A stretch of DNA of 49,016 bases, taken from positions 1-49,016 of the forward strand of contig DMXI01000559.1 in assembly GCA_003483885.1 (NCBI GenBank). The letters are read 5' to 3'. The DNA is from Microscillaceae bacterium. Its GTDB lineage: Bacteria; Bacteroidota; Bacteroidia; Cytophagales; Microscillaceae. A program made the translations under genes and the position numbers. The notes beneath the pieces are model-generated. The model was not told where the DNA came from. It worked only from the letters and a program-made list of their open reading frames with translations, and ran no database searches. Of the stretch, positions 16,457-40,963 are shown in pieces. The number at the start of each line of letters is the position of its first letter. Position 1 is the first letter of the stretch.

Positions 16457-16545
16457 ACAATGTACAGGTTTTCAAAAAAAAGCCACTTGTCCGTATAAGT
16501 ATTACAGACAAATGGCTTTTGTATTATATATTTTTCAATAATTAC

Positions 16546-16785
16546 CTAGAAACTCGTTTTGCGAGAAGGCGAAACTACATCATCGTGCCAACGATCTACT
16601 AGTAAATCGTCTATTTTGCCCCCAGGAGGTAAACTGATAATTGGAAAATCGTTTCCGCCGGGCATGCCTCCATCATCATCGTTATTGGGTGGATAATCGT
16701 TTCGTTTGATAATGGAACGAATCATTACCCAAGTAATTAATGAGAAACACACCAGACAAATCACAAAATATATCAGTACCGTCAT
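16546..16785 (-). CDS. Hypothetical small membrane protein (one TM, acidic Pro/Gly/Asp-rich tail)
   Basis: 79-aa ORF with N-terminal hydrophobic helix; no recognisable family; may be spurious. Confidence 0.3.
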   Translation of the reverse strand: MTVLIYFVICLVCFSLITWVMIRSIIKRNDYPPNNDDDGGMPGGNDFPIISLPPGGKIDDLLVDRWHDDVVSPSRKTSF

Positions 16786-16924
16786 ACAGCAGGTAATTAA
16801 AAAATCAGGGTCTTAAACAAAATTAGGAGTTGTTGACAAACAGCCACTTTTTATATGGTATTTGTCTTTATTTCTAAAATAAAGAATTATATATAAAAAA
16901 TCAACGAATCATATTGGATAATGT

Positions 16925-17584
16925 TTAGAAAAATCCTCCCCAATTGGCCAATTGTCTAAAGAAATTGGGAATCACATTTGGTACAAACGCAATCGTAGTG
17001 GCAATCCCAAACAAGGCTCCAAACAAATGAGCCTCGTGCCCTATGTTATCATTTCCTTTTTTGGCCATATAGTATGAGTAAAACAAATAGCCTATTCCTA
17101 GTATAAATGCAGGTAATGGTATCGGGATAAATAATAACCCTAACTTGGCCGTAGGAAAGCACAAAATAAATATAAATACAATGGCCGATACGCCTCCCGA
17201 AGCTCCCAAAGCATTGTATCCAGGGTTGCCCTTATACTTGAGGTAAGCCGGAATACTGGAAATGATAATAGCTAATACATAAATGCCTAAAAAGATAAAA
17301 CTTCCATAACCCGGATAAATTTGGTCATAAATAAGAAGCTCTACATGACGCGCAAAGAAGAATAACGTCAACATGTTGAATAATAGGTGTATTCCACCTC
17401 CGTGAATAAATCCCGAAGACAAAAAACGGTAATATTCGCGGCGTGTCTCGATTACATAAGGGTTGAACATCCATTTAGACTTGAACATTCGATTTTTATC
17501 AGCATATAAACTAATTCCTACAGTAACAGCAATGATGATGGTTGTAAAAAATATATCACCATTGGGTTTAAAAAGTTCATCCAT
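16925..17584 (-). CDS. Rhomboid family intramembrane serine protease
   Basis: 219 aa; 6 TM; GFIHGGGIHLLFNM, catalytic GASGGVSA (GxSG) and HLFGALFG His motif. Confidence 0.8.
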   Translation of the reverse strand: MDELFKPNGDIFFTTIIIAVTVGISLYADKNRMFKSKWMFNPYVIETRREYYRFLSSGFIHGGGIHLLFNMLTLFFFARHVELLIYDQIYPGYGSFIFLGIYVLAIIISSIPAYLKYKGNPGYNALGASGGVSAIVFIFILCFPTAKLGLLFIPIPLPAFILGIGYLFYSYYMAKKGNDNIGHEAHLFGALFGIATTIAFVPNVIPNFFRQLANWGGFF

Positions 17585-17880
17585 ATTTCTTTAAGTTTGA
17601 TAGGTTTGGTTCATGGTATCTTTTACTTGCTATGATTTATTTAAATATAACAAATTTTATCAAGCTTCTATTCTACTAACGTTAATTTAGGGTGGATTTA
17701 ATAAATAGTCTCCCCATTAGAGCCAGTAGTTTTGCGGATAGATGAGGCTATTTCCCCGAAAAAATCGGGATTTAAACAATTTGCCCCATAGCAGCGCTAC
17801 GGGCAACAAAAATAACGAAATATATTCGTGAAAGAACGGCTATCAATTGAGTAAGTTATTTTTTGGATATTCCCTTAACC

Positions 17881-18864
17881 CTATCGGTCCCGATTCATCA
17901 ATTGAACCGTAAAGCCTCGCAATAAGCTTTTAGTCTCTTCGTGCGCCTCGATGGCAGCCAATTGATCTAAACCAGTATCGAAATACTCATTCATTTTTGT
18001 TTCAGTCAAGCGCTTGATTTCCAACTCGTTGTAAATTTCAGTCACTGCCTGTACTTTTTCTGCTTTGTCAAACTCTTTGAGACTCAACCAATGCTCTAGT
18101 GATGCTTTGGTTTTGCCCTCTGCTCTCTTGAGTGCATTGATTAATAAAAATGTTTTTTTGTTGGAGATGATGTCTCCCCCTACTTGTTTGCCAAACTTAG
18201 CCGCATCAGCGTATACATCCAGTAAGTCATCCATCAATTGGAAGCCCACCCCCACATTTACCCCAAACCCATTGAGCAAATCGGTGGAAGCTTCGGATGC
18301 ATTGGCTACAATCCCCCCTAGCTCAAGACTATAACCTAGCAAAACCGCGGTTTTCAGGCGAATCATGTTCAGGTATTCGTCCTCAGTTACTTCATCACGG
18401 GTTTCAAAATTCATATCCAATTGTTGTCCTTCACATACCTCGGCTGCACAACGGTTAAACTTTCGGATCACTCGTTTGAGGTGTTGATTGTCAATATCCA
18501 GCAGCAATTCATAGGCTTGCACCAGCATGACATCTCCAGAGAGTATTCCAGTATTGGCATTCCACTTTTCGTGAATAGTAGGCTTACCACGCCGCAGTGG
18601 AGCTTGGTCCATAATATCGTCATGCACCAGGGTAAAATTATGGAAAACTTCTACCGCCAGTGCTGGCTTCATAGCTATTTCCTGAATTTTTTGGTATTCA
18701 GGTTCAAACAAGCCATAACCCAACAAAGCCAACAGAGGACGCATGCGTTTGCCCCCTAAGCTCATAATATAACGAATGGGTTCATACAATTCCTGAGGGT
18801 GATCACCATAATTTAGCGCATCCAGTGATTGATTGATTTCAGCTTGTAAAGTCTTAATGTCCAT
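17881..18864 (-). CDS. Polyprenyl (octaprenyl/solanesyl) diphosphate synthase
   Basis: trans-IPPS fold with first DDxxD (LVHDDIMD) and second DDxxD (FQLMDDLLD) motifs; ORF extends to 18945 but MDIKTLQAE at 18864 is the more typical N-terminus. Confidence 0.85.
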   Translation of the reverse strand: MDIKTLQAEINQSLDALNYGDHPQELYEPIRYIMSLGGKRMRPLLALLGYGLFEPEYQKIQEIAMKPALAVEVFHNFTLVHDDIMDQAPLRRGKPTIHEKWNANTGILSGDVMLVQAYELLLDIDNQHLKRVIRKFNRCAAEVCEGQQLDMNFETRDEVTEDEYLNMIRLKTAVLLGYSLELGGIVANASEASTDLLNGFGVNVGVGFQLMDDLLDVYADAAKFGKQVGGDIISNKKTFLLINALKRAEGKTKASLEHWLSLKEFDKAEKVQAVTEIYNELEIKRLTETKMNEYFDTGLDQLAAIEAHEETKSLLRGFTVQLMNRDR

Positions 18865-19171: not shown

Positions 19172-22100
19172 ATGGCCGATAAAAAACTCTTTGCCTTGTG
19201 TGTAGGCATCAATGAATACCCAACAGGGGTAAGCAACCTGGCAGGTTGTATTGCTGACGCCGAAAACTGGAAAAACTTTTTGGAAACCCATTATCAAAAA
19301 ACGCTCTCCCCAGAAGTACTTCTATTGACCAACGGCCAAGCTACTCGTAAAGGCTTTATAGATGCTTTTCGCAATCACCTGGGTCAAGCTCGTGACGGAG
19401 ACACGGTTTTCTTTCACTACAGTGGTCATGGCTCTCGAGAAAAATCGCCCTCGGCTTACTTAAAGTTTTTCCCCGATGGAATGAATGAAACACTGGTATT
19501 GAGTGACAGTCGGGCTACTAACGAGGATGGTAATTATACAGGGCACGATTTGGCCGATAAAGAACTAGGAAAGCTTCTCGAGGAAGTCATTATAGATAAA
19601 CCGAACTTAAACTTAATAGTATCGCTGGATTGCTGCCACGCTGGTTCAGGTACCCGAGATGTTTCTGGTCTGGCAAATCCACGCCTTACTGGCGATCGCA
19701 CTGACGATGCTCGTTCGTTTGAAACCTACCTCCCTGGTATTTTTACAGGGGCAGAAGTAACCCCTCCCTCTAGTAAACATGTATTGTTGGCTTCTTGCTC
19801 TAAATACCAAAAGGCTTGGGAAACCAAAGAACACACGGGGCTTTTTACTACTTCGGCACTAGAGATACTTGATAAATATGGTACCCAAACTACTTTTGCC
19901 GATTTATACACCCGCACCCGCACATTGATGCGAAAAACCACCAATATTCAAGACCCTCAATTAGAAGTACACGAAAAATACAATGCCAACCAAGTTATTT
20001 TCACGGGTGGAACTTTAGAAGGGGCAGGTCAATACACTCGAAGAATTTACCAAGTAGATAATGTTTGGAAGTTAGATTTTGGGGCCATTCATGGTATGCC
20101 CAATGATAAAACTATAGAGCTAGCTGTATATGAGAGTGCAGATGATTTAAATCAGCAAAAATCTCTGGGCAATGCTAAATCCGTAGACGTAACCGGACAC
20201 AAAACTACCCTTGAGCTTGATTTTGAAGCCGATGCTAATCAAGAATACATTGGGGAGTTTCTCGCGCCACCTACACCTCCCCTTAACGTGTTTATTTATG
20301 GTGCCCAAGAAGGTCAAGAGTTTCTCCAAAAAACGTTTGAAAAACACCCCAGTCTGAATTTTACCTTAACCACCATGGATGATCAGGATGGTTATACTTT
20401 TGATGCAAAATACATCGAGCAAGACAACCCTCACCCCTATTTTGGTGAAGTCAAGATCATCGATAAACAAGGGCAATTAATCACTCCTAAGGCAGGAGAT
20501 TACAACCTTGTGGCTTACTTTGATGGCTACTTCTTATTGGACGAAAATAATCGCCTGATTAAAGGTTGTAAAAGTGGTTATGATGATGATCAAGCCATTA
20601 TCATATTATTCCAACTTCTGGACAAAATCGCCAATTGGGAAAATCTAACGGTCCTTCAAAATAAAGCACCTAAACTGAATCCTGACGATGTAGAGTTCAG
20701 CCTATATGCAGGAGAGAATCAAGAACAAATCGCAGGAACAGAATTCACCGCTTCTTTGGTGGAAGTAGATGATCCTGATGTACCTTGGCCAAGCATTCCT
20801 TTTGAGTTACGATTCAAAAATAACACGAAGCAAGGTCTACACATTTCATTGATATATCTGGATGATCATTATACAGTAATCCCTCTTTATAATGACTACA
20901 TAGAGTCTAAAACTGGCGAAACTACGCTGATAAGCGATGGGTTGCAGATATTAAGTAACAATAGAGACGAAAGTGGTAGGGCATATGATGAAGTGTTAGA
21001 TGAATATCGTTTTAATCAAAGTACAATGATCTTTAAGTTACTAGTCAGTACTGAGCGTCTGGATGACTTTACATTGGAACAAGCCGGCTTTGATATAGGT
21101 CATATTTCTTATAACAGAATACTGGCTTCAAGGGTGAAAGGTGGCATTACAAAACCTGTAAAAAACGATTGGTTTACCAAAACAATCCGAACATACACGA
21201 TACGTCAACGCTCCAAACTAAGCAAAAACGACTTAGCGTTAGGAGAAACCAAACAATTGACCATCAAAGGTCAGGAACAAGTAGCAGCCAATGTAAAGCT
21301 GAGTAGCAGCAATTCTGGCAGTCGCAGCGCTGACAAAACTTCTCTCATGATGAGTTTGCTCGAACAACAGGATGGAAACCTGATCAATTTTGATGGAGCA
21401 GTGGGTGGTACTAATGTATTAGAAATCAACGATGTTCAAGGCGATGAAAAACTCGCAGAAACCCCATTGGAACTCACCCTCAAAGAGGCGGTCTCAGATG
21501 ATGAGTTGCTCCTGCCCCTTACTTTTGACGGAGAACACATCTTTTCGATTGGTGAAACCCAAAGCCTGGAAAATGGCCATACCAACATTGCCATTGATGA
21601 AATACCGGTCGTAGAAGAAGGAAGCCGTAGTTTAGGCAAATCGCTCAAGTTGGCCTTTTTTAAAATCGCCCTCAAGCGCCACCCCGAAAAGATTTATCAA
21701 TTGGCTTGGGTAGAATATTTGAATAGCCAAGATAAAAAGAGCAAGGGAATTATCCAGCGCCATCGGGATAATGACGAAATAGCCAAAAAGGTAGCCAATG
21801 CTACGAAGATCTTGCTGTTGTTGCATGGCATCATTGGTGATACCGAAGATATGGCCATTGCTGTAAAAGAAATTGCGGCCGAAAAGGGGTATGATTTGGT
21901 GCTGAGCTTTGACTACGAAAACCTCAACTCTTCTATAGAAAAAGACATTTCCTGGTCATTGAAAAATCAACTCGAGCAGGTGGGCTTCAAAGCCGATGAC
22001 AGTAAGGAATTGCATATTTTAGCCCAAGGAATGGGCTGTTTAGTAGCTCGCTGGATGGTAGAACGCCGAGGAGGCAACCAATTGGTAGATCGGATGATTT

Positions 22101-22600
22101 TAGTTGGGCCTCCTAGTGGTGGATCGGTATTGGGTACTCTGGAGGCTTATCGCAAATTGGCCACTACAGCGCTCAGTATTGCCGTCAATGTATTGTTGCC
22201 CTTTGCGGGTTGGGCTGGTGGTTTACTCAAAAACATAAAAACCGCCCTTAAACAAGGACAGAAGCTTACCACTACGTTGGCCGAAATGCACGAAAACTCT
22301 ACTTTTATCCGGGATTTGAACGACAGCGATGACCCAGGAGTGCCTTATGCCATTGTAGCAGGAGATGTACGTACATATGAACCAAGTGATGGTAGCAGTT
22401 TCTCTAAGTTTAGAGAAAAGCTTTCCACCAAATTGGGCACTTTTGTAAATGGAGGCGATGCCAATGACATGATTGTGGACTACGCCTCGATGAAACAAGC
22501 GGGAAAAAATAGCCAAGTGGAGATTACGAAGGTGGTTTGTCATCATTTAAACTACTTTCAGGAAGAAGTGAGCCTGGAGACCATCAAAAACCTTTTGTAG
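19172..22600 (+). CDS. Caspase-domain (peptidase C14, orthocaspase-like) protein fused to C-terminal alpha/beta-hydrolase-like domain; ~500-aa uncharacterised middle region
   Basis: 1142 aa; N-terminal ~280 aa with caspase catalytic dyad His (FHYSGHGS) and Cys (DCCHAGSG); C-terminal ~300 aa with alpha/beta hydrolase landmarks LLLHGIIGDTEDM, nucleophile-elbow-like AQGMGCLVARW (Ser position occupied by Gly), VGPPSGGSVLG. Confidence 0.85.
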   Translation: MADKKLFALCVGINEYPTGVSNLAGCIADAENWKNFLETHYQKTLSPEVLLLTNGQATRKGFIDAFRNHLGQARDGDTVFFHYSGHGSREKSPSAYLKFFPDGMNETLVLSDSRATNEDGNYTGHDLADKELGKLLEEVIIDKPNLNLIVSLDCCHAGSGTRDVSGLANPRLTGDRTDDARSFETYLPGIFTGAEVTPPSSKHVLLASCSKYQKAWETKEHTGLFTTSALEILDKYGTQTTFADLYTRTRTLMRKTTNIQDPQLEVHEKYNANQVIFTGGTLEGAGQYTRRIYQVDNVWKLDFGAIHGMPNDKTIELAVYESADDLNQQKSLGNAKSVDVTGHKTTLELDFEADANQEYIGEFLAPPTPPLNVFIYGAQEGQEFLQKTFEKHPSLNFTLTTMDDQDGYTFDAKYIEQDNPHPYFGEVKIIDKQGQLITPKAGDYNLVAYFDGYFLLDENNRLIKGCKSGYDDDQAIIILFQLLDKIANWENLTVLQNKAPKLNPDDVEFSLYAGENQEQIAGTEFTASLVEVDDPDVPWPSIPFELRFKNNTKQGLHISLIYLDDHYTVIPLYNDYIESKTGETTLISDGLQILSNNRDESGRAYDEVLDEYRFNQSTMIFKLLVSTERLDDFTLEQAGFDIGHISYNRILASRVKGGITKPVKNDWFTKTIRTYTIRQRSKLSKNDLALGETKQLTIKGQEQVAANVKLSSSNSGSRSADKTSLMMSLLEQQDGNLINFDGAVGGTNVLEINDVQGDEKLAETPLELTLKEAVSDDELLLPLTFDGEHIFSIGETQSLENGHTNIAIDEIPVVEEGSRSLGKSLKLAFFKIALKRHPEKIYQLAWVEYLNSQDKKSKGIIQRHRDNDEIAKKVANATKILLLLHGIIGDTEDMAIAVKEIAAEKGYDLVLSFDYENLNSSIEKDISWSLKNQLEQVGFKADDSKELHILAQGMGCLVARWMVERRGGNQLVDRMILVGPPSGGSVLGTLEAYRKLATTALSIAVNVLLPFAGWAGGLLKNIKTALKQGQKLTTTLAEMHENSTFIRDLNDSDDPGVPYAIVAGDVRTYEPSDGSSFSKFREKLSTKLGTFVNGGDANDMIVDYASMKQAGKNSQVEITKVVCHHLNYFQEEVSLETIKNLL

Positions 22601-22711
22601 TAATTGAATTAATTTATAAAAGGCCACTAAACATTTATTCTGCTATAAAAAAACGAATTTCGAATAATGAAGGAAACTGAAAATGTCCAGTAGTACGAAT
22701 TTATAAATACA

Positions 22712-22748
22712 ACGACAAATGGCTCAAAAGCTGTTTGTCGTTTTTTAT
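22712..22748 (+). terminator. Rho-independent terminator after caspase-fusion gene
   Basis: acgacaaa ... tttgtcgt 8-bp stem followed by tttttt. Confidence 0.55.
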
Positions 22749-22807
22749 GTTGCATCTCATATTTAGAGGTTTTACCTTTCTACCTTACAAAGATCAACCT
22801 CGAAAAA

Positions 22808-23773
22808 ATGAACACCCCCATACGCATAGAATTGCCCACCATTTTTGGGATGAAAACGGTGAATGCTTATTTATTTTTGGAGCCTACTCCTACCCTCGTG
22901 GATTGTGGCGAACAAACCGATAAATCCTGGGAGGTACTGCAGGCGGCACTGGCTGAACATCAATTGCAAATTCAGGATTTGGCTCGAGTAATTATCACTC
23001 ACGCCCATGTAGACCACATAGGAATGGCGGGTAAAATCGCATCTGAAAGCCCTCATACCGAAATTTGGGTTTCTGAGTATGCTTACAATTGGGCAGTAAA
23101 TCCCCAAGAAATGAACAACATTCGCCAGCAGGTAATGCAAGAATATATGCAGTTGTTTCCTCAATTTGTCAATTCACCTTTTCAGCAAATGATGGTACAA
23201 CTATACAAAAAAGCGAGTTCGACCTGGGGCGAAATACCGAAGGATCGCATCAGAAAGTTTACACTGGAAGAGAAGCTGCATCTGGGTAACCTGGATTGGG
23301 AAATTATTTATGCGCCAGGGCATTGCAATCATCAAACTTGCTTTTACCAGCCCGATACCCGACAACTCATTTCGGCTGATATGTTGCTTTCTATCACCCC
23401 TTCGCCCGTCATAGATGTCACTCTTAAGCCTCCCTATAAGCGAGAAAAAAGCTTACATCAGATGATTGAATCGTTCCATAAATTTGCGGCCATGGACATC
23501 GATCAAGTATATCCTGGACATTATGAACCCTTTCAAAACCATCGCGAAATCATTCAAAAACAATTGGACCGCATCAATATGCGCAAAAAACAATGTTTGG
23601 AACTTATCAAAACAGGGGTTGATGATTTTTTTGTATTGCTGACTGAGCTTTACGGAAAAAGTTTTCCCATTCCAGCCATTCCTATGTTGGTAGGTTATCT
23701 TGACTTGTTGGCGGAGGAGCGCCTCATTACTACCAACAAAACCAAGCAAGGTCTTAAGTACTATGTCACCTAA
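22808..23773 (+). CDS. MBL-fold metallo-hydrolase
   Basis: 321 aa; HAHVDH (HxHxDH) motif and downstream His/Asp ligands typical of metallo-beta-lactamase fold. Confidence 0.75.
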   Translation: MNTPIRIELPTIFGMKTVNAYLFLEPTPTLVDCGEQTDKSWEVLQAALAEHQLQIQDLARVIITHAHVDHIGMAGKIASESPHTEIWVSEYAYNWAVNPQEMNNIRQQVMQEYMQLFPQFVNSPFQQMMVQLYKKASSTWGEIPKDRIRKFTLEEKLHLGNLDWEIIYAPGHCNHQTCFYQPDTRQLISADMLLSITPSPVIDVTLKPPYKREKSLHQMIESFHKFAAMDIDQVYPGHYEPFQNHREIIQKQLDRINMRKKQCLELIKTGVDDFFVLLTELYGKSFPIPAIPMLVGYLDLLAEERLITTNKTKQGLKYYVT

Positions 23774-23877
23774 TGATATAACCACAGCTTGAGTTAGGTA
23801 ATGGAGCAAAGATTGTGTATTTTGGAAGTGTCCCAACCCAAAAAACTCGTTCAGACTTACCCAATTATACATTATTT

Positions 23878-24834
23878 ATGAATGATCAAATTAAAGACAA
23901 AATCCGTGGAGCCATCTTTGGCCAAGCCATTGGAGATGCCATCGGACTTGGCACTGAATTTATGACTCAGGCCATGGTCAAGCACTATTACCCAGAGGGG
24001 CTGACTGAATACACCCAAATATTACAAGACAAACATCGAAAACGCTGGAAACCAGGTGAATGGACAGACGATACAAACCAAATGCTGTGTATTTTGGATA
24101 GTATACTGGCCACTAAAAGAGTCGATGTCAAAGACATTGCGCTTACTTTGGTAGACTGGGCACATCACGATGGACGTGGGTCGGGGCGCACTATTACTTC
24201 GGTATTAGGATCACCAATTTTTATGCAACGTCCCCACGAAGCTGCCAAAAATTATTGGGAACAATCTAATCGATACGCTGCGGCTAATGGGGCCGTCATG
24301 CGCACCTCAGTATTAGGAGTTTGGGAATATGATAAGCCCGAAAAAATCAGAATCAATGCCACCAAAGTGTGTAAGATCACCCATTATGATCCGCGCTGTG
24401 TAGGCTCTTGTGTTATGACTTGCCTGGCCATTAGTCGCTTACTCCAGGGCGAAACCGATATGGAACAACTCTCCTATAGTCTTTTGTTGGAAGGCGATAT
24501 TTTTGATCAACGTATTCGTCCTTTTTTAGCAGAACATTTACACCCTAACATAGCAGTACTCAATCTGAGCGATACCAGCAACCTTGGGTACACCCTAAAG
24601 GCGTTGGGTGCTGGACTTTGGGCCTTGCAGTATGCTCCCTCGTTCGATTCGGGAATTTCTACGATTATTCATGAAGGAGGCGATGCCGACACCAATGCCG
24701 CGGTAGCAGGCGCTATCTTAGGGGCCAAGTTTGGTTATGAGGCTTTACCCACTCGCTGGAAAGATCACCTACATCGCAAAGACTGGTTGATGGAGCAAAC
24801 CGAGCAACTTATTGCCCTGTTGGAAGCGGCATAG
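23878..24834 (+). CDS. ADP-ribosylglycohydrolase family protein
   Basis: N-terminal GAIFGQAIGDAIGLGTEF motif (ARH family), C-terminal GGDADTNAAVAGAILGAKFG metal-binding Asp cluster; ORF begins 23815 but MNDQIKDKIRGAIFG (23878) is likelier start. Confidence 0.8.
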   Translation: MNDQIKDKIRGAIFGQAIGDAIGLGTEFMTQAMVKHYYPEGLTEYTQILQDKHRKRWKPGEWTDDTNQMLCILDSILATKRVDVKDIALTLVDWAHHDGRGSGRTITSVLGSPIFMQRPHEAAKNYWEQSNRYAAANGAVMRTSVLGVWEYDKPEKIRINATKVCKITHYDPRCVGSCVMTCLAISRLLQGETDMEQLSYSLLLEGDIFDQRIRPFLAEHLHPNIAVLNLSDTSNLGYTLKALGAGLWALQYAPSFDSGISTIIHEGGDADTNAAVAGAILGAKFGYEALPTRWKDHLHRKDWLMEQTEQLIALLEAA

Positions 24835-34421: not shown

Positions 34422-35030
34422 ATGAATCATTATCAACGCCTTGGGGTAACCAAGGAAACTACCCTGAAAGAAGTAGAACAAGCTTACCAAAATCGCCTTC
34501 AGAAATATCAAACTCAAGCCAAGCAAGGACTTATCATTGACAAAGAAATCGAAGCTGAATTAGAAAAGTCCTATCAAGTAGTTACAAACTTTCTTTTAGA
34601 CACTCAGAGAAAAAAGATTCCGCACGGAATAAAGTTCTTGTTGATGGTAGTGGCTGGTACTGCCATTATATTTAGTCCAGTTTGGCTAGCTCAAGCGTTT
34701 GAAAACGACAAGCTCCTTGCGTTAATTCCGGTGTTTTTTGTGTTATTAATTGTGCTAAATGCAATACTGAGTGCCCGTAAAGTGAGTAAAACATCCAACG
34801 GCACAATGTATATTCCCAATGCAAAAGACAATAGAAAACAAAGTCAAAAGAGTGCTATTTGGATTGGTTGTATTCTTTTGGGTGTTTGTTTGGTGGGCTA
34901 TGCGGTAGGTGAAGAAACCATAGACGACAATGAAGGGTTTATTTACCTTGGTGTTGGCCTTCTTACCTTTATATGGGGAGCCACTATGTCGATAAAAGAT
35001 TGGCGAGCTTCTCATAACAAAAATCGCTAA
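34422..35030 (+). CDS. J-domain-like (HPD motif absent) membrane protein, paralog 1
   Basis: 202 aa; N-terminal helix II-like YQRLGVTKETTLKEVEQAYQNRLQKY but no HPD; 4 predicted TM segments. Confidence 0.45.
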   Translation: MNHYQRLGVTKETTLKEVEQAYQNRLQKYQTQAKQGLIIDKEIEAELEKSYQVVTNFLLDTQRKKIPHGIKFLLMVVAGTAIIFSPVWLAQAFENDKLLALIPVFFVLLIVLNAILSARKVSKTSNGTMYIPNAKDNRKQSQKSAIWIGCILLGVCLVGYAVGEETIDDNEGFIYLGVGLLTFIWGATMSIKDWRASHNKNR

Positions 35031-35087: not shown

Positions 35088-35585
35088 ATGACTCACTACG
35101 AAACATTAGGCGTAAGTCCACAAGCTACTCAAGAACAAATTACTGCAGCCTATCAAACCTTAACCAAAAAGTTTAAAGTATTTGGTGAAGCTCCAGGTTC
35201 TGACAAGTTCAAACGCTTGGACAAAGCCTACGAAGTATTGTCTGATGCCAGTGCTCGTAAATCTTATAACGAACATATCAGTGACCCTAATAACCGCAAA
35301 AAAGTTCGAGTACAAGCCCATAAAAATCGTAAGAAGAAAGGGGCTTATGATGATCGCAATGTGGTAAGTATCTTGATCATACTATCCATTATACTTGGGA
35401 TTTTCTTTACGCTTGCTTTTGGAACCTTTTACATGATGTTGCTCCCAGTGGCAACTACACTCATAGGAATGATCTCACTTTGGCGCTCGGGCAAGGTTAC
35501 CAGAGAACCAGTAGATTTAGAAGGTGGGGCATCTGAAGTAAAATCAAACATTGTAGAAGGCATCATAGATGGCTTGTTTGATTGA
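35088..35585 (+). CDS. J-domain-like (HPD motif absent) membrane protein, paralog 2
   Basis: 165 aa; HYETLGVSPQATQEQITAAYQTLTKKFK...DKAYEVLSDASARKSYNEH (J-domain helices II-IV) with HPD replaced by VFGEAPGSD; 2 TM. Confidence 0.45.
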   Translation: MTHYETLGVSPQATQEQITAAYQTLTKKFKVFGEAPGSDKFKRLDKAYEVLSDASARKSYNEHISDPNNRKKVRVQAHKNRKKKGAYDDRNVVSILIILSIILGIFFTLAFGTFYMMLLPVATTLIGMISLWRSGKVTREPVDLEGGASEVKSNIVEGIIDGLFD

Positions 35586-35634: not shown

Positions 35635-35666
35635 AAAAAACCCACAACTCGCTAAAGTTGTGGGCA
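35635..35666 (-). terminator. Intrinsic terminator downstream of MVP-homolog gene (also convergent with J-like gene)
   Basis: cccacaact / agttgtggg 9-bp stem, 6-nt loop; A-run on + strand preceding = U-run on minus strand. Confidence 0.6.
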
Positions 35667-35678
35667 TTGTTTCATTGT

Positions 35679-38237
35679 TTAATCTTCGTCTTCCTCATCC
35701 ACTACATCATCTTCCATTCCATTGAGGCTAGACTCTAGCACATTGGCCAGCTTGGTCCCTTTAAGCATATTGGTAAACACCTGGGCTACACTCTTGCCTC
35801 CCAAAATAGCCAACGGTGACATCGATTTGGCCATTTTTTCAGCCAATGATTTATCAGCAAAAGCTTGCAAGGCTGCAATCAAATTGGGCGACACCGCTTC
35901 GGCTTTGTTTACTACTGCCTGTACCTCAGCTCGAAGTAGCTCAAGCTCTTGATGCAATTCTTTTTGGGCAATTTCCAGTACCAACTCCTCTTCTTTTTGC
36001 TTACGAGCCAGTTCGGCATCTTTGATCTGAGTCAATGAATCTTGTTCAGCTAAATTGGCCTCCAGCTGACGTTGCTTAGACTGTATCTCCATGTCTAGTT
36101 TTGCCAAAATAACCTCAAGCTCCTTTTTAGATTCTTTCTTTTCCAAATCAAATTGCTTTTGGGTAGTATCAGACTTGGTACTGGCAATCTGTTGGTTAAT
36201 TTCTTCGCTTTGTTGGGTAAACTCTAATTTACGTTTTTCAGCATCTATGCGCAGGGTTTGCTTAACAACCTCTTGTTGGGCCGAAATGAGTAAGTTTTCA
36301 ATACTGACATCACTCAAACGAATGTCCAGCACCTCGATGTCATAAATACGCATGTTGTTTTCTTCAAACACTCGCCCAGGACGCTTATTGTTTTCTCCAG
36401 CTTGGCCCAAGATACTGTTGCGTAAAATATCGATACCATTGGCATAAAAATCCATAATGGTGTGTTTCTTTACCACATTGCGAATAAACGAACGCATATG
36501 GTCAGTCAAAAACTTGACATAGTTCTCTACATTGAACCATTTGTCCGATTCTTCTTCAAAATTGACCCGGTAAGAAATGGTAATGCTTACTTGGGTAAAG
36601 TCAGAAGATTCGGCTTTGACAATATCAGATATTTTGTTGTGCAATACCCGTAAATACACCGTGGTAATGGTGTTATCAGAGGTTTTGGGTGTTCCGGTAG
36701 AAAGCGTGATGGGCTCCAGGCTTTCGTCATACTCTAGTAAATAAGTCTGAGGGCCAGCAATGACTTTGCGTTGCCCAGTTTTGCTTACCACTAAAATAGC
36801 ATATCCAGTCCAAAGGTTAATGGTTACAGCGCCATCGTATTTGGTATCTAGAGTGATGGTACGAGGTGGGGTAAAAGTTTGCTCCCGGGTAAATTCATCT
36901 CCCGCCATTTCTTTCGATACCTTTTCTTTCTTTTTACGACGAGGGGCTGGCATAGGAATTTCATCAGCCAGTTCTTCAGCTTCCATCGCGGCGGCGGCTG
37001 GCTCTGCCGATATTTCCAGGTACCCTTCGTTAGACTTACGTCGGTCCAGCTCTTGTTTAAGTTGGCGGTTGTATTCCAAAGCTTCGCTATTGCCCGGAAA
37101 CCACAGCTTTACTTGCTTGGGGTCTAGGACCCGTTTTACAAACACCGCCTCGCGAGGGTCAGGCAAAAACATCACGGGGCCTTTTTTGAGTGATACTTTT
37201 CCGGTTTTTCGGTTGAGGTAATAACGCCCCTCTCCTGCCGGGATGGCAATGGCGTAGTGTCGCTCTTTTTGCCCATACTTGATAATGGCATGCTCAGGAC
37301 GAGGGTAATAAATCATTTGTTCATTACCAGTTACAAACAACTCCTCCCCTTCTTTGAAAGAAGTACCATTCTCCTCATAAGGAGCAATTACTTTGATGTA
37401 CAACCCACTCATCTCGTTGAGTTCAATGGCTCGAAACTTACGCGACCCATTACGGTATACAAATTCTTCGGTAGGCTCTGGGAAAACTACCGCGGGGCCT
37501 TGAATGTAACGCTTATTGCCATCTTCATCCAATAAAATACAATACTCTAAACGCTCCAAAGTGACCGCTTCTCGCACGTAGTTTCCATTCACCCCTCGTA
37601 CTACTTCTATCCCAGTAGGAGGAATATAAAAAGAAACCGCATCCCCTTTGATGATAAGCATCTTACCCATGGTCAAATCGGGCATTTCTTCCAGGTTTGT
37701 CAAATCGGTATCAGAACCCTCCCCTCCTTCTTTATCTTCCTCCCCATCTTTTGCCTCAGTAGAATTCTTGGTTTTAATCACCGCCTTGGTCCAGTTTTGT
37801 CGAGCTTCTTCTTCGTCGTATACCCTTACAGCCAAGTACTGATTGGAGCGTAAATTATGCCCACGCAATACTTTAACCATTTGTCCAGGCCAAAGCGCAA
37901 AATTGATAGGCCCTGGAATGTTAACTTTACGTCCTACATTCAATGCAGTAAGGTTATTTACGGTACCATTCTGAGGTTGGGTACCATCCTGAGACGGGTT
38001 TTTCATGACTACATACCAACCTTCGGGAGCAGTAGTAAAGGTTTGAAGAGAATTGTCCAGGTTAGAACGTTCGAATTTTTTAGTATCGGCATCAAAAATC
38101 ACCGGTTTATCGGTGTTGGCCAAACTGGTTTTATAAGGGCCTACATATACGTTGATGTTTCCCTTGGTTTGGTCAGATATAAAAGCAAATTCATTGGGAG
38201 CGAGCACCAAATCGCGCTCTCGGTTTGAGTCTGACAT
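35679..38237 (-). CDS. Major vault protein (MVP) homolog
   Basis: 852 aa; N-terminal ~470 aa of consecutive ~55-aa beta-rich MVP-type repeats, shoulder/SPFH-like segment (VSITISYRVNFEEESDKWFNVENYVKFLTDHMRSFIRNVV collinear with vertebrate MVP shoulder), ~170-aa heptad coiled-coil (cap-helix) and C-terminal segment EAVSPNLIAALQAFADKSLAEKMAKSMSPLAILGG collinear with MVP [36 protein letters not shown]. Confidence 0.8.
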   Translation of the reverse strand: MSDSNRERDLVLAPNEFAFISDQTKGNINVYVGPYKTSLANTDKPVIFDADTKKFERSNLDNSLQTFTTAPEGWYVVMKNPSQDGTQPQNGTVNNLTALNVGRKVNIPGPINFALWPGQMVKVLRGHNLRSNQYLAVRVYDEEEARQNWTKAVIKTKNSTEAKDGEEDKEGGEGSDTDLTNLEEMPDLTMGKMLIIKGDAVSFYIPPTGIEVVRGVNGNYVREAVTLERLEYCILLDEDGNKRYIQGPAVVFPEPTEEFVYRNGSRKFRAIELNEMSGLYIKVIAPYEENGTSFKEGEELFVTGNEQMIYYPRPEHAIIKYGQKERHYAIAIPAGEGRYYLNRKTGKVSLKKGPVMFLPDPREAVFVKRVLDPKQVKLWFPGNSEALEYNRQLKQELDRRKSNEGYLEISAEPAAAAMEAEELADEIPMPAPRRKKKEKVSKEMAGDEFTREQTFTPPRTITLDTKYDGAVTINLWTGYAILVVSKTGQRKVIAGPQTYLLEYDESLEPITLSTGTPKTSDNTITTVYLRVLHNKISDIVKAESSDFTQVSITISYRVNFEEESDKWFNVENYVKFLTDHMRSFIRNVVKKHTIMDFYANGIDILRNSILGQAGENNKRPGRVFEENNMRIYDIEVLDIRLSDVSIENLLISAQQEVVKQTLRIDAEKRKLEFTQQSEEINQQIASTKSDTTQKQFDLEKKESKKELEVILAKLDMEIQSKQRQLEANLAEQDSLTQIKDAELARKQKEEELVLEIAQKELHQELELLRAEVQAVVNKAEAVSPNLIAALQAFADKSLAEKMAKSMSPLAILGGKSVAQVFTNMLKGTKLANVLESSLNGMEDDVVDEEDED

Positions 38238-38463
38238 ATAGTTGTTTTTTTTGATTAAGTTCGGTATTTCTTAGGGAAATGAATTTACATAAAAATTTGA
38301 GTTTTGAGGCATCAGTATCCTTTTTTTTGACTTTAGTGATTCATTCCTTCATTCAGAAACAAATAGTATCAAAAACAAGGTTGCTGCTCTGCTTCCAAAA
38401 GCCAGAAAGCCTTCGGAGTTACTGTTCCAAAAGCTTTCTAACAATCATAAACAGAATGGCATT

Positions 38464-39228
38464 TTAGCGCCCAAAAACCGCTTTTTGATAGAGTTTTTCT
38501 ACTGCTGGATCGCTTTTATATTTGTTATACAATGTTTTTATCATCGCTTCTGGTTGGTCTGCAAGTGGATTATATCCTTTTTTTATAAAATAGAGGTAAA
38601 CGTCATCGGCTGGTTTTAAAAATAATAAAAACATCAGGCGAGGGTTATTCAACTTCTTCAAAGCCTTTTTTGAGTCAATGAGGGTTTGTAAATATCCTTT
38701 ATAATCTTGTTTCGTCATAACCCTGAGCGGCTTTGCTTTTTGAAAGGCATCCATCTGCTTTTCGGTATACATATGCAAAAAAAATGGTGGAGGTTTAAGT
38801 GCTTCATTGGCCTCTTGAATATTGATAAAATACCCAGTAGGGCTTATTTGAGGGTTGACATACAATATAAACTTTTTTTGATTGGTGGTATCGGCTATAA
38901 ATCGCCAAATGCCTTGTTGCTTGCTTATGGTAGTAAACTTTGTAAGATGCATATCTTTAAGAGCTCCCGCCTCATAACTTTCCGTCTTCAGGGTATTCCC
39001 TTTCAGGATCAACTTACTATTGTATACCTTTACTTTGCTGGTTCCCTTGGAGTTGTTCGCTTGTTGTTGATTACTCAAATTCGAGTTAAAACTCGCTTTT
39101 ACCTTGGCTTTGAAACCACTCATGAGTACATACCAGGTTCCTTCCAGATTTTGGGCGTTTGAAACAAAACTGTACAAACAAATAAAGGTAAAGAGGAGTA
39201 CCTTTTTGAAGTGATTTATAGACATCAT
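38464..39228 (-). CDS. Hypothetical secreted protein (signal peptide), immediately upstream of MVP homolog on same strand
   Basis: 254 aa; MMSINHFKKVLLFTFICLYSFVSNAQN signal peptide; no recognised family. Confidence 0.55.
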   Translation of the reverse strand: MMSINHFKKVLLFTFICLYSFVSNAQNLEGTWYVLMSGFKAKVKASFNSNLSNQQQANNSKGTSKVKVYNSKLILKGNTLKTESYEAGALKDMHLTKFTTISKQQGIWRFIADTTNQKKFILYVNPQISPTGYFINIQEANEALKPPPFFLHMYTEKQMDAFQKAKPLRVMTKQDYKGYLQTLIDSKKALKKLNNPRLMFLLFLKPADDVYLYFIKKGYNPLADQPEAMIKTLYNKYKSDPAVEKLYQKAVFGR

Positions 39229-39461: not shown

Positions 39462-39500
39462 AAGCTAAGTCTTTGGTTTCAGCACATTGAAACCAAAGAC
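39462..39500 (-). terminator. Strong intrinsic terminator after DUF4157 gene
   Basis: tctttggtttca / tgaaaccaaaga 12-bp perfect stem, 7-nt loop, followed on minus strand by ttagctttttt. Confidence 0.7.
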
Positions 39501-39541
39501 TGCATTTGTTAAGGTTCTACGAAAAACAACGCCTTGTAATA

Positions 39542-40963
39542 TTAAGCCTCTCGACGCAGGAACGTACTAGTTGCCTCATTATATTCATAACCATATTTAG
39601 CCATCAAGGCTTGAACACCCGCATAGCCATTTTCAATCGTATCTAATTCAAGTTTGTAAGAACTTGTTCTGGTACTACCTTCTTTATTACTTACTAAGCG
39701 TACTTTATCCCCCCTCTGAAAGGCAGATTCAAGAAAAGGAAGGTTGAACTGTTGCCAGACAAAAGTCTGCGCAACCGACATGGCCAATGTCAGTATAAGT
39801 TTGATATGGCCTTCACTTAAATATTCACGCGCTTTCTGTTTTACTTGTTCTAAGTTTAAATCATCCAAATCAGATAAGTGACTTTCTTGTGCAAATTTAC
39901 GCAAATGCTGTGAAAGAAAATCTTTTTGGGCATACTCTACAATTTCATCATAATCTACCACAGCCAAAACTTTGAGTCCTGGAATATCGCTATCATATAA
40001 TCCCCCACCTCCTCTCACTTTTGCCATTGTACCTTCTGGTAATCCTTTGATATCGAGATCACCTCCTTTGAATCCTACAAAATTTCGGGTACCACCGGAT
40101 AGAGGATTGGTCCATTCTTCACCAAATTTTCCTAATAGAAGCGTGGACTTGCTATCATCATCTATGACTACATCTCCTCCAAAACCGTGATATAAAAACT
40201 TGACAATGCCGTTTTCCTTTACCGCAAACTCTTTGTTGTTTTCCGCATCCTGGTAATGGGTAGTGTCCCCATCTTCAACCACATTGACGTTAGGATTACC
40301 CTCCAACTTTCTAACCAGGTTTTGAATTTTGTCATCTATGCGAGGTATCAGCCTACGTTGTACTGGCCCGCCAGAAGATACCACCCCTTGCTGCCCTAAA
40401 TTTTCGGTACCTTGATTCTCTTTCCTCTGCAAAGGCTGCGCCGCCATATTGTCTACGGTTTGCTCTCGGGTGGTATCTACCGATTGTCCATTAACTACTT
40501 TGTCGCCTTTTGGGGTGCCATTTTTAGCGTTGTCTATGGCGTGGGCCACTTCATGTTTCATGTTGGCCTCCGTGTCTTTGCCAGGAGCAAAGTCAATTTT
40601 GTTGCCTTGAATGGTGGCTTCGGCATTGACCGTGTCTGGGAAGGACGAATTATGGGTGGCTTTGAGTTGAGAAGTATCTACCCCGTGTTGTTGCCCCATA
40701 GTGGTAGCTATTTCCTTAAACTTGGCGGAGCCTTGGGGTTGCTCCCCCTTTGTTTGCCCAGTAGTGTTGCGTTGCACGGGTCGTTGCTTGGCTTGAACCG
40801 GCCTTTGTTTGGATTGGATGGGCTTCTGCTTGGCCTGAATTGGCTTTTGTTTCGCTTGAACAGGTTTTTGCTTCGCCTGAATTGTGCTCTGACTTTGTGT
40901 AGTTGATGGATTATTTTGTTTTTGAACGTTGTGGTTATCATTAGATAAAGCGTGCTGATGCAT
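39542..40963 (-). CDS. DUF4157 (eCIS-associated toxin-type metallopeptidase-like) domain protein with N-terminal QAKQKPx tandem repeat and unknown C-terminal domain
   Basis: 473 aa; DUF4157 signature layout KEIATTMGQQHGVDTSQLKATHNS ... AEATIQGNKIDFAPGK ... MKHEVAHAIDN (HExxH) ; residues 27-66 five 7-aa repeats; C-terminal ~300 aa no recognised family. Confidence 0.65.
   Translation of the reverse strand: MHQHALSNDNHNVQKQNNPSTTQSQSTIQAKQKPVQAKQKPIQAKQKPIQSKQRPVQAKQRPVQRNTTGQTKGEQPQGSAKFKEIATTMGQQHGVDTSQLKATHNSSFPDTVNAEATIQGNKIDFAPGKDTEANMKHEVAHAIDNAKNGTPKGDKVVNGQSVDTTREQTVDNMAAQPLQRKENQGTENLGQQGVVSSGGPVQRRLIPRIDDKIQNLVRKLEGNPNVNVVEDGDTTHYQDAENNKEFAVKENGIVKFLYHGFGGDVVIDDDSKSTLLLGKFGEEWTNPLSGGTRNFVGFKGGDLDIKGLPEGTMAKVRGGGGLYDSDIPGLKVLAVVDYDEIVEYAQKDFLSQHLRKFAQESHLSDLDDLNLEQVKQKAREYLSEGHIKLILTLAMSVAQTFVWQQFNLPFLESAFQRGDKVRLVSNKEGSTRTSSYKLELDTIENGYAGVQALMAKYGYEYNEATSTFLRREA
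40786..40890. repeat. 5 x 21-bp in-frame tandem repeat inside DUF4157 gene (encodes KQKPVQA-type heptads)
   Basis: Visible nucleotide periodicity cttggcttgaaccggcctttg / tttggattggatgggcttctg / cttggcctgaattggcttttg / tttcgcttgaacaggtttttg / cttcgcctgaattgtgctctg. Confidence 0.75.

Follow-up and report, generated by a model that had tools for sequence, protein, structure and literature searches.

The vault is a particle whose function has been an open question since 1986, and it is usually called exclusive to eukaryotes. The self-assembling protein shells of bacteria, i.e., encapsulins and bacterial microcompartments, are functional analogues only. Their folds (the HK97 capsid fold and BMC/BMV domains) are unrelated to the fold of MVP, the major vault protein, and their cargo genes normally lie adjacent to the shell gene.

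Eukaryotic MVP alone assembles vault-like particles, even in E. coli (PMC9778704). In human vaults, an NAD+/ADP-ribose pocket between adjacent shoulders includes R504, K506, R507, P508, H509, R511, and K573, among other residues, and K506 contacts the NAD+ diphosphate (PMC12280208). The exterior of the human vault cap is described as positively charged (PMC12915596).

MVP homologs of bacteria have been described before. Daly et al. in 2013 gave the name of bacterial MVP to A1ZGE7 of Microscilla marina and I4AHY9 of B. litoralis, and in-silico docking of these two proteins predicted lateral association (PMC3762200). Other published members come from S. grandis (H6L4P8), Plesiocystis, Corallococcus, and Herpetosiphon (PMC3762200; Sokolskyi 2019, bioRxiv 10.1101/872010). 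Bacterial homologs were treated again in papers of 2019, 2023, and 2026, and the JGI annotation calls them "major vault protein". MVPs of Asgard archaea and predicted vault proteins of Borgs (PMC12962969; PMC12660748) likewise belong to prokaryotes or their mobile elements and show the series of repeats, shoulder, and cap helix; we liken them to the bacterial proteins by published description, and both groups are characterised only in silico. The Asgard homologs are reported to have five repeats and were modelled as decamers (PMC12962969).

The MVP homolog analysed here is therefore to be seen as an added member rather than a discovery, as the prospect of a bacterial vault is already published for the same orthologous group. 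That is, such homologs have been known in silico since 2013, and the group includes A1ZGE7 (84% identity) and I4AHY9 (65%); our protein is another member, from a different strain. The novelty implied by the original prediction was thus overstated, while its remark on the lack of any experimentally characterised bacterial vault is in line with the literature searched.

The gene, its protein, and the repeats

The window, i.e., the whole 49-kb stretch of DNA that was analysed, carries the gene on its minus strand. The 852-aa ORF, with an ATG start, occupies exactly the coordinates first given for it. The four window peptides quoted with the original prediction are found at aa 33–55, 328–359, 550–576, and 780–814, and the three vertebrate peptides were located in human MVP, the reference sequence of which is 100% identical to PDB 11dr_A. 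The product matches GenBank HAS45813.1 at 100%, a "hypothetical protein" of an uncultured Microscillaceae MAG. The features are as follows, all on the minus strand.

38238..38463 (-), upstream intergenic region of 226 bp, presumed promoter region (sequence; terminator scan)
35679..38237 (-), complete CDS of the bacterial MVP homolog, 852 aa, stop codon 35679-35681 (ORF list)
37032..38222 (-), N-terminal beta-repeat array, aa 6–402, about 7 modules (AF2, Foldseek, hhalign, global alignment)
37668..37769 (-), acidic low-complexity loop, aa 157–190 (pLDDT <50; mean top-residue frequency 0.25; 30% gaps; composition)
36846..37031 (-), disordered loop, aa 403–464 (pLDDT <50; conservation 0.40; opposite human 414–453 in hhalign)
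36681..36845 (-), last repeat, aa 465–519, equivalent of human R9, Pfam Vault_3 (E=9.8e-9)
36309..36680 (-), shoulder domain, aa 520–643, SPFH/Band-7 fold (MVP_shoulder E=9e-31; Band_7 E=1.2e-5; pLDDT ~90)
35898..36308 (-), cap-helix equivalent, aa 644–780, predicted as one continuous 137-residue helix (AF2 pLDDT ~80–88)
35736..35897 (-), conserved C-terminal segment, aa 781–834, at the cap-ring position (conservation 0.58; aligned to human 797–829)
35682..35735 (-), variable C-terminal tail, aa 835–852 (conservation 0.18; charge)
35640..35665 (-), intrinsic terminator with an 11-bp stem, a loop, and a T-run (terminator scan and sequence)

The gene stands alone. Its own terminator, first placed at 35635-35666, is real: the 11-bp stem and T-run run from 35665 to 35640 on the minus strand, beginning 14 nt past the stop codon. 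A terminator scan of the 226-bp upstream intergenic region detected none. The maximal 19-residue Kyte-Doolittle mean of HAS45813.1 is 1.03, the N-terminus is hydrophilic, a lipobox is absent, and the only Cys is residue 233. From its sequence, the protein is predicted to be soluble and cytoplasmic, with no membrane anchor.

Judged from sequence and modelled structure, the gene encodes a genuine full-length member of the bacterial MVP family, the ortholog of A1ZGE7. Pfam MVP_shoulder (PF11978) is matched at E=9e-31 (106.8 bits against a cut-off of 25) over profile positions 2–118 of 118, and Vault_3 at E=9.8e-9 (35.7 bits against 28.8) over aa 486–529; the Vault, Vault_2, and Vault_4 models do not match the protein. 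In a family-wide Pfam scan, run on a 43-member alignment, MVP_shoulder and Vault_3 are each present in 43/43 members. Against the MVP chains of the PDB, phmmer gives 2.5e-13. Comparison of the family profile with human MVP by hhalign yields 99.6% probability, E=1.7e-24, and 501 collinear columns, pairing aa 221–809 with human 273–829. Global alignment with human MVP gives 715 collinear pairs at 24% identity, the R1 motif P..DQ..VGP included, and identity to the human protein overall is ~24–26%. With the AF2 model as the Foldseek query, the best 12 matches are full-length vault structures only (6e-27 to 6e-21), followed by crystal structures of murine MVP R1-R7 (~7e-9). Secondary matches are to the SPFH cages QmcA, flotillin, erlin, prohibitin, HflK/C, and stomatin (5e-7 to 1e-3). 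The monomer model has a pTM of 0.44, with low confidence at aa 226–325, in the C-terminal segment, and in relative domain placement. The profile and Foldseek checks that had been proposed for this ORF thus returned strong MVP matches, and the full architecture claimed for it, i.e., repeats, an SPFH-type shoulder, a long cap helix, and a C-terminal segment, is supported by sequence, profile, and predicted structure.

We considered and rejected contamination by eukaryotic DNA and a recent eukaryote-to-bacterium transfer. The flanking genes are bacterial, the locus is syntenic with that of marine bacterium AO1-C, and the composition is ordinary. A recent eukaryotic origin is also contradicted by the human MVP identity of only 24–26% and by the existence of hundreds of bacterial clusters.

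The domain order is that of the eukaryotic MVP (rat 4V60/4HL8, human 9BW5 and 11dr), and the length, 852 aa, compares with 861–893 aa. Features in common are beta repeats at the N-terminus, the next-to-last of them holding a flexible loop, then an R9-type repeat, the SPFH shoulder, a helix of ~140–155 residues, a P-K keyhole-loop motif, a helix periodicity read as two stripes, and, more weakly matched, a conserved C-terminal segment. Unlike eukaryotic MVP, the window protein appears to have about 8 motifs rather than 9 repeats, an extra acidic loop (aa 157–190), different waist residues, different residues at most NAD+-pocket positions, and an acidic C-terminal tail.

In the N-terminal array, G-P...P motifs recur at G33, E72-G73, G109, G198, G247, G304, and G353. 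The array is all-beta in the AF2 model, confidently so at aa 6–155, 185–225, and 330–400. Residues 225–402 align to human repeats R6-R8 (in hhalign, aa 221–402 against human 273–450). Global alignment pairs aa 1–224 with human 1–273 at 24% identity, and P14, D22, G33, and P34 correspond to human P12, D20, G31, and P32. Sub-profile hhalign for repeats within aa 1–225 gave weak, non-significant matches, the R1 match being positionally collinear. AF2 re-prediction of the fragment aa 185–400 was worse (mean pLDDT 55.9), and aa 226–325 were of low confidence in both runs; therefore, the fold assigned to aa 226–325 is taken from the profile alignment with R6-R7 of human MVP. The acidic loop varies in length and sequence across the family, and the loop at aa 403–464 is in the position of the flexible insertion in human repeat R8. 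Counted by eye, hence not rigorously, the G-P-type motifs number eight (G33, G73, G109, G198, G247, G304, G353, and G495). Of the consecutive beta-repeats originally described, then, the beta-repeat region itself stands (aa 6–519), but it is broken by the low-confidence loops at 157–190 and 403–464, and it appears to have about 8 motifs, not 9. With such a count, the geometry may differ. Waist residue F6 of human MVP is, by global alignment, a nearly invariant Arg in the bacterial family.

Shoulder, long helix, and C-terminus

The shoulder was said to be collinear with that of vertebrate MVP, and the MVP_shoulder match and hhalign bear this out. It also matches Band_7 (25.9 bits against a cut-off of 23.6, E=1.2e-5), as do the shoulders of 15/43 family members. 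The last repeat closes with a nearly invariant L-S-T-G-x-P-K "keyhole loop" at aa 512–518, in which P517 and K518, aligned to human P505 and K506, are invariant in 109/109 family sequences. The human NAD+-pocket positions are mostly changed (R504 to T, R507 to T, H509 to D/N, R511 to I, and K573 to D). That is, only P505/K506 are kept in the bacterial family, and the other positions are nearly invariant with different residues. R530, N534, and K535 are also nearly invariant in the family. We suggest that the P517-K518 loop, which would be placed between adjacent shoulders, may form with R530, N534, and K535 a putative inter-subunit site for a small phosphate-bearing ligand. Such a site would be an analogue, though no exact copy, of the NAD+/ADP-ribose pocket that human vaults have, and is the more speculative step of our proposal.

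The helix at aa 644–780 directly follows the shoulder and aligns to human 648–796. It had been described as a heptad-rich coiled coil of about 170 aa; instead, the model gives a single 137-aa helix lacking 3.5-residue periodicity. A canonical heptad coiled coil is rejected: the window protein, the family profile, and the human cap-helix all lack a 3.5-residue peak. The dominant hydrophobic periodicity is 2.24 residues (2/2000 shuffles), also seen in the family profile, and that of the human cap-helix is 2.22 residues (24/2000 shuffles). We interpret the 2.24-residue peak as an alias of the 1.8-residue second harmonic, i.e., as two opposite hydrophobic stripes.

The C-terminal segment carries the motif AVSPxLIAALQAF...MSPLAILGGKS; G814 is invariant, and A781, A789, L790, A803, G813, and G827 are nearly so. 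Its match to human 797–829 is weak (17% identity), with monomer pLDDT below 50. The last 20 residues of the protein are strongly acidic, with a net charge of -10.

The SPFH cages (HflK/C-FtsH, QmcA-YbbJ, flotillin, prohibitin, erlin, and stomatin) likewise have an SPFH domain and, after it, a long helix from which a closed helical barrel or cap is built, and by this analogy the principle of assembly is probably common to them and the window protein. In contrast to the window protein, which is anchorless and matches MVP far better, the SPFH cages are anchored in the membrane and have no MVP-type repeat array.

Neighbourhood, selection, and proposed assembly

For 83 bacterial loci, the ORFs lying up to 6 kb to either side were clustered by all-vs-all BLASTP, and no conserved partner or cargo gene emerged. 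The largest cluster of non-MVP neighbours, found at 11 loci in variable positions, comprises histidine-kinase and response-regulator proteins of generic type. Downstream of MVP, AO1-C and Rifleibacterium have unrelated genes, and the immediate neighbourhood differs even between 95%-identical orthologs. Because other genomes do not share these neighbours, genomic context is uninformative on function. The 473-aa neighbour had been called a DUF4157 gene, an identity that we reject, as the PF13699 match (E=0.12, 13 bits) falls below the cut-off of 22. The search that had been suggested for PARP-like, TEP1-like, and small-RNA partners found none in the 49-kb window: no Rfam family, vault RNA or Y RNA included, reaches the gathering score there, and TROVE (TEP1), PARP, and vWA domains are absent from the window ORFs of at least 150 aa. 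In this the locus is unlike the eukaryotic vault with its TEP1, PARP4, and vault RNA, and the lack of a cargo-like neighbour among the 83 loci (+/-6 kb) sets MVP apart from encapsulins and microcompartments. With no conserved neighbour, Rfam RNA, or TROVE, PARP, or vWA domain at hand, MVP appears to be self-sufficient, which fits the ability of eukaryotic MVP to assemble alone.

The bacterial MVP family comprises at least 416 species-representative genomes from more than 10 phyla. Ka/Ks against orthologs is 0.022–0.028, with Ks of at least 1; the gene is under very strong purifying selection and is functional. The repeats, the shoulder, and the C-terminal motif are highly conserved; poor conservation is confined to the two loops and the tail. 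Protein identity across phyla is 57–61%, which implies horizontal transfer. New here are the size and conservation of the family, far greater than the literature's "a few Bacteria" would suggest, the MVP with no partner genes, and the helix with the packing signature of the human cap-helix.

The reading that we favour, with somewhat better than an even chance of being right as a whole, is that of a functional bacterial MVP, orthologous to A1ZGE7, that would self-assemble into a vault-like shell. Self-assembly would be the most likely mechanism on the grounds of homology and helix periodicity. Many copies would line up laterally in the manner of eukaryotic MVP. The long helixes would make a closed helical barrel, each meeting two neighbours via its two opposite hydrophobic stripes, and the shoulders and repeats would form the wall of a large hollow shell. 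This shell would be a half-vault, possibly paired via the conserved N-terminus, and its assembly would require no other gene. Points against the shell are the low AF2 confidence in parts of the model, the apparent count of ~8 repeats, the changes in most pocket residues, the replacement of F6 by Arg, and an acidic tail where the human cap exterior is described as positive.

Some of these points suit a real MVP homolog that makes no closed cage, i.e., a monomer, open ring, sheet, or filament that might, for instance, be a scaffold or bind nucleotides or RNA. Assembly of bacterial MVPs is absent from the literature searched; the repeat number, waist residues, and C-terminal tail are unlike those of mammalian MVP; and the five-repeat Asgard homologs were modelled as decameric cups, not 39-mers (PMC12962969). 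We consider this unlikely, as strong selection acts from end to end, on the N-terminal R1 and the C-terminal segment too, parts that serve only assembly in vaults, and as the helix periodicity matches that of the human cap-helix. A role like that of HflK/C, QmcA-YbbJ, or flotillin, in which a cup or ring on the cytoplasmic membrane would enclose a membrane patch or a client protein, draws on the SPFH/Band-7 shoulder (E 1.2e-5; 15/43 family members), the Foldseek matches to SPFH cages at 5e-7 to 1e-3, and the membrane association in situ of a subpopulation of Dictyostelium vaults (PMC13100048). It is made improbable by several results: segments for membrane crossing or lipid anchoring are absent (maximal hydropathy 1.03), ~520 aa of MVP-type repeats stand where an anchor would be, the 83 loci share no NfeD, FtsH-like, or other membrane partner within +/-6 kb, and MVP structures outscore SPFH cages by 20 orders of magnitude while covering the full length.

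Lastly, the gene might be phage-derived or take part in phage conflict, as a moron or in defence or counter-defence, so that the bacterial copy would act mainly during phage infection. The homologs in three curated huge phages and 226 IMG/VR contigs (see below), the horizontal transfer implied by the 57–61% cross-phylum identity, and a neighbourhood that changes even between 95%-identical orthologs speak for it. Against this very improbable account, no phage genes flank MVP in the window, neither MVP nor its neighbours have a PADLOC defence-system match, no plasmid-borne copies were found, and the composition of the gene is within the range of the whole window. Moreover, the phage MVPs fall into separate lineages that branch deeply, with identities of 57% at most, and so are not recent donors. 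This account addresses role, not assembly, and is compatible with the favoured reading of a self-assembling shell.

If bacterial MVP assembles, it would be a new class of large protein compartment in bacterial cell biology, would bear on the origin of the eukaryotic vault, and would open genetics in simple organisms. A broader and tentative proposal, possible but on balance doubtful, is that prokaryotic MVPs are true self-assembling vault-type cages, widespread in bacteria and independently kept by huge phages. The vault would then be an ancient prokaryotic and phage nanocompartment, possibly related to RNA or nucleotides, that eukaryotes inherited. If so, culturable M. marina ATCC 23134 or B. 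litoralis DSM 6794 would offer a tractable route to the 40-year-old question of vault function.

Homologs in viruses

Full-length MVP homologs are present in 226 viral contigs of IMG/VR and in three curated huge-phage genomes of 462–735 kb. The literature searched holds no report of phage or viral MVP homologs. As huge phages carry MVP, they provide a new handle on its function. In the huge phages, the MVP gene sits among RNA-repair and nucleotide-metabolism genes.

The MVP gene and its product

The major vault protein (MVP) gene lies at window 35679-38237 (-), an unbroken ORF of 852 aa with an ATG start. The predicted protein is 96.5 kDa with a pI of 5.1. A 226-bp intergenic region precedes the gene, and the terminator ascribed to it by the original prediction is a clean intrinsic one: 14 nt separate the stop codon from an 11-bp stem followed by a T-run (35665-35640). 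The identical protein is found in GenBank as HAS45813.1, "hypothetical protein [Microscillaceae bacterium]", on a 96.6-kb MAG contig. Around the gene, the window is a typical stretch of Bacteroidota chromosome, with genes for H+-pyrophosphatase, MscS, Fur, ECF sigma, proline dehydrogenase, an S8 peptidase, RNase III and the like, and base composition is unremarkable. No hydrophobic segment or lipobox was found in the protein, which is predicted to be soluble. The peptides originally quoted from the window are all present in the ORF, and the vertebrate peptides set against them are from human MVP. The human sequence used here is 100% identical to PDB 11dr_A over 893 residues.

The protein is almost certainly an MVP family member along its whole length. 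Pfam finds MVP_shoulder (E=9e-31; 106.8 bits, cut-off 25), Vault_3 (E=9.8e-9) and Band_7 (E=1.2e-5), and in a phmmer search of the PDB the only significant matches are MVP chains (2.5e-13). A 109-sequence family profile matches human MVP with 99.6% probability (E=1.7e-24) over 501 collinear columns, pairing aa 221-809 with human 273-829, i.e., R6-R9, the shoulder, the cap-helix and the first part of the cap-ring. When human MVP is added by global MAFFT, there are 715 collinear pairs at 24% identity, and aa 1-224 lie opposite human 1-273. An R1 motif is common to both proteins: P14, D22, G33 and P34 correspond to human P12, D20, G31 and P32.

The AF2 model has a mean pLDDT of 73 and is confident at aa 6-155, 185-225, 330-400 and 465-780. 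Its repeats are all-beta, its shoulder is alpha/beta, and a single unbroken helix spans aa 644-780. Foldseek ranks twelve full-length vault structures at the top (6e-27 to 6e-21, about 900 aligned columns), followed by murine R1-R7 crystal structures (about 7e-9). Cages of the SPFH type come after these, with QmcA, flotillin, erlin, prohibitin, HflK/C and stomatin at 5e-7 to 1e-3. The TM-scores are low because domain orientations are undefined in the elongated monomer model (pTM 0.44). Thus Pfam, profile, MAFFT, AF2 and Foldseek all agree with the full MVP architecture proposed at the outset; the observation was correct and its interpretation essentially right.

Some details need revision. The repeats, described as about 470 consecutive aa, form an array broken by two poorly conserved and poorly predicted loops, an acidic low-complexity one at aa 157-190 and a 60-aa disordered one at aa 403-464. 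Human MVP has its flexible R8 insertion at the position of the latter. Eight G-P-type repeat motifs were counted versus nine, in a count that is not rigorous. The segment aa 226-325 (window 37263-37562 (-)) is among the family's most conserved, with a mean top-residue frequency of 0.75-0.81 and many invariant G, P, Y and F residues, and has a pLDDT <50 in both full-length and fragment AF2 runs. Possible reasons are a fold that needs adjacent subunits or an alignment of too little depth.

The heptad coiled coil of about 170 aa gives way to a helix of 137 residues with no heptad pattern: a 3.5-residue peak is absent from the protein, the family profile and the human cap-helix alike. The dominant hydrophobic periodicity is 2.22-2.24 residues in all three (reached in 2/2000, 2/2000 and 24/2000 shuffles, respectively). 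We read this peak, in an interpretation of our own, as a sampling alias of a 1.8-residue period. Such a period would give two hydrophobic stripes on opposite helix faces, as expected of a barrel-wall helix with a neighbour packed on each side.

Proposed assembly and a candidate ligand site

The protein is proposed to self-assemble laterally into a hollow vault-like shell, in which the helices would form the barrel cap, and the shoulders and repeats the wall. Half-shells may pair via the conserved N-terminus. With modest confidence, we favour such a cage, because the architectural homology is complete, selection acts on segments that serve only assembly in vaults, the helix signature is common to the human cap-helix, no partner gene is required, and MVP by itself, even in E. 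coli, makes vault-like particles (PMC9778704). Constraint on the protein is strong in the numbers, with Ka/Ks of 0.022-0.028 versus three orthologs, at synonymous sites near saturation. A non-cage oligomer or scaffold is possible but unlikely. A membrane-associated cup of the SPFH type, the class that Foldseek places third, is improbable, as the protein carries no anchor. Slimmer still is the chance of a primarily phage-related role, which would be compatible with assembly into a cage.

The shell, if formed, may also hold a ligand. In the loop L-S-T-G-x-P-K (aa 512-518), P517 and K518 are invariant in 109/109 sequences, and they align with P505/K506 of the human "keyhole loop", where K506 touches the NAD+ diphosphate between adjacent shoulders (PMC12280208). 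The remaining human pocket residues are substituted in the bacterial family. The matching positions R530, N534, K535, V558, E571 and D579, in an alignment that could be shifted by one or two residues, are themselves nearly invariant, which suggests a candidate conserved ligand site with a specificity unlike that of the human pocket.

Bacterial relatives and huge-phage copies

An exhaustive HMMER search found 1358 clusters (50% identity) at E<=1e-3 and 647 at E<=1e-30. Almost all of the best 150 span the full length, at 41-65% identity. Relatives occur in at least 416 GTDB species representatives, among Bacteroidota, Riflebacteria, Chloroflexota, Sericytochromatia, Desulfobacterota, Myxococcota, Vulcanimicrobiota, Gemmatimonadota, Planctomycetota, Synergistota, Bacillota and others, while the 2026 literature still speaks of "only a few Bacteria". 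Cross-phylum identity is 57-61%.

Bacterial MVP homologs were listed by Daly, Sutherland-Smith and Penny in 2013, who report MVP-like folding and docking for them in silico (PMC3762200). Among those listed are Microscilla marina A1ZGE7 and Flexibacter (Bernardetia) litoralis I4AHY9, 84% and 65% identical to the window protein (our P0007, UniRef100_A1ZGE7, and P0062). Bacterial, phage and Asgard MVPs are also treated by Sokolskyi (2019), Santos et al. (2023) and a 2026 Nature Microbiology paper, and JGI already annotates these proteins as "major vault protein". The window protein is thus a further member of a family known for more than ten years from in silico work only, and for the gene itself we found nothing absent from the literature. 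Reviews still describe vaults as eukaryote-exclusive. A bacterial MVP would surprise non-specialists. In line with the original statement that no bacterial vault has been characterised experimentally, our literature search found no such work on any prokaryotic MVP.

The MVPs of huge phages are more novel than the window gene. By tblastn, full-length homologs (41-42% identity, 97-98% coverage) were found in three curated huge-phage genomes, as follows.

Phage MVP genes found by tblastn
LR756500.1 (locus L168), 20970-23387: MVP, 462-kb genome
LR756501.1/LR756503.1, 17227-19602: MVP, 735 kb

A scan of IMG/VR gave 226 viral contigs with a relative, an upper estimate as IMG/VR may include misassigned cellular DNA. 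Clustered at 90% identity, the best 80 of these give 55 groups; 16 of the 80 are on contigs >=200 kb. Over both sources, full-length phage homologs show 40-53% identity. MVP_shoulder, Vault_3 and the family's invariant residues are kept in all six phage copies tested. In a rough NJ tree, phage copies branch outside the bacterial subgroups, in three or more deep lineages, with <=57% identity to any sampled bacterial copy. Their neighbours in LR756500 (L168:517-12459) are polymerase-like, RNA ligase, polynucleotide kinase-like ATPase, phosphatase and DprA-like genes, and in a second phage clade (IMG/VR locus L139:1220-11483) a DNA methyltransferase, a nucleotidyltransferase and a metallophosphoesterase. 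That is, at both loci examined MVP sits within nucleic-acid modules, RNA-repair-type genes included, not virion, capsid or tail modules. No PHROGs v4 family matches phage MVP. Two gut phages with MVP are all that a 2023 preprint lists, predicted vault proteins have been reported from Borgs, and a 2026 jumbo-phage review never mentions vaults; no paper in the searched literature ties MVP to huge or jumbo phages.

Genomic neighbourhood

The MVP gene stands alone. Flanking genes differ among the window, M. marina, B. litoralis, Rifleibacterium and a JGI genome, and adjacent genes are gained or lost even at the 95% identical locus of marine bacterium AO1-C. Clustered flanking ORFs of 83 loci held no recurrent neighbour family except generic two-component proteins. 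The genomic context first noted, a secreted protein and a DUF4157 toxin-like gene, therefore carries no functional weight. As to the PARP-like, TEP1-like and small RNA partners suggested for a search, no Rfam RNA reaches its gathering score in the 49-kb window, and none of its ORFs of 150 aa or more has a TROVE, PARP or vWA domain. PADLOC has no match for the MVP gene, and no plasmid copies were found. Other features of the loci are as follows.

Window 38464-39228 (-): 254-aa signal-peptide-like protein directly upstream of MVP
Window 39468-39501: strong 14-15-bp hairpin terminator between the 473-aa gene and downstream genes
Window 39542-40963 (-): 473-aa protein, N-terminal run of near-identical QAKQKP(V/I) repeats, HEVAH metalloprotease-like motif
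Window 34422-35030 (+) and 35088-35585 (+): adjacent small membrane proteins with N-terminal J-domains, convergent to MVP
Window 19172-22600 (+): 1142-aa protein, N-terminal Peptidase_C14 (2e-22; PADLOC "caspase" model 7e-30), C-terminal DUF7379
Window 23815-24834 (+): ADP-ribosylglycohydrolase (PF03747, 6e-66)
L001 (M. marina) 16348-18544: four tandem paralogs of about 134 aa, without Pfam match, downstream of MVP

The 254-aa gene is missing from the AO1-C locus, where MVP is instead followed downstream by an unrelated gene of 293 aa; the surroundings thus turn over even among close relatives. The supposed DUF4157 neighbour is the 473-aa protein, whose single Pfam match, PF13699 (eCIS_core, formerly DUF4157), is sub-threshold at E=0.12. 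The DnaJ match is 1.8e-13 for the 35088-35585 protein and weak for its companion; the pair also adjoins MVP in AO1-C and is absent in more distant genomes. The 1142-aa caspase-domain protein could be a defence- or cell-death-related protease. The ADP-ribosylglycohydrolase gene, about 11 kb from MVP and outside the +/-6 kb neighbour test, is curious in that the human vault shoulder binds ADP-ribose; its proximity is probably coincidental.
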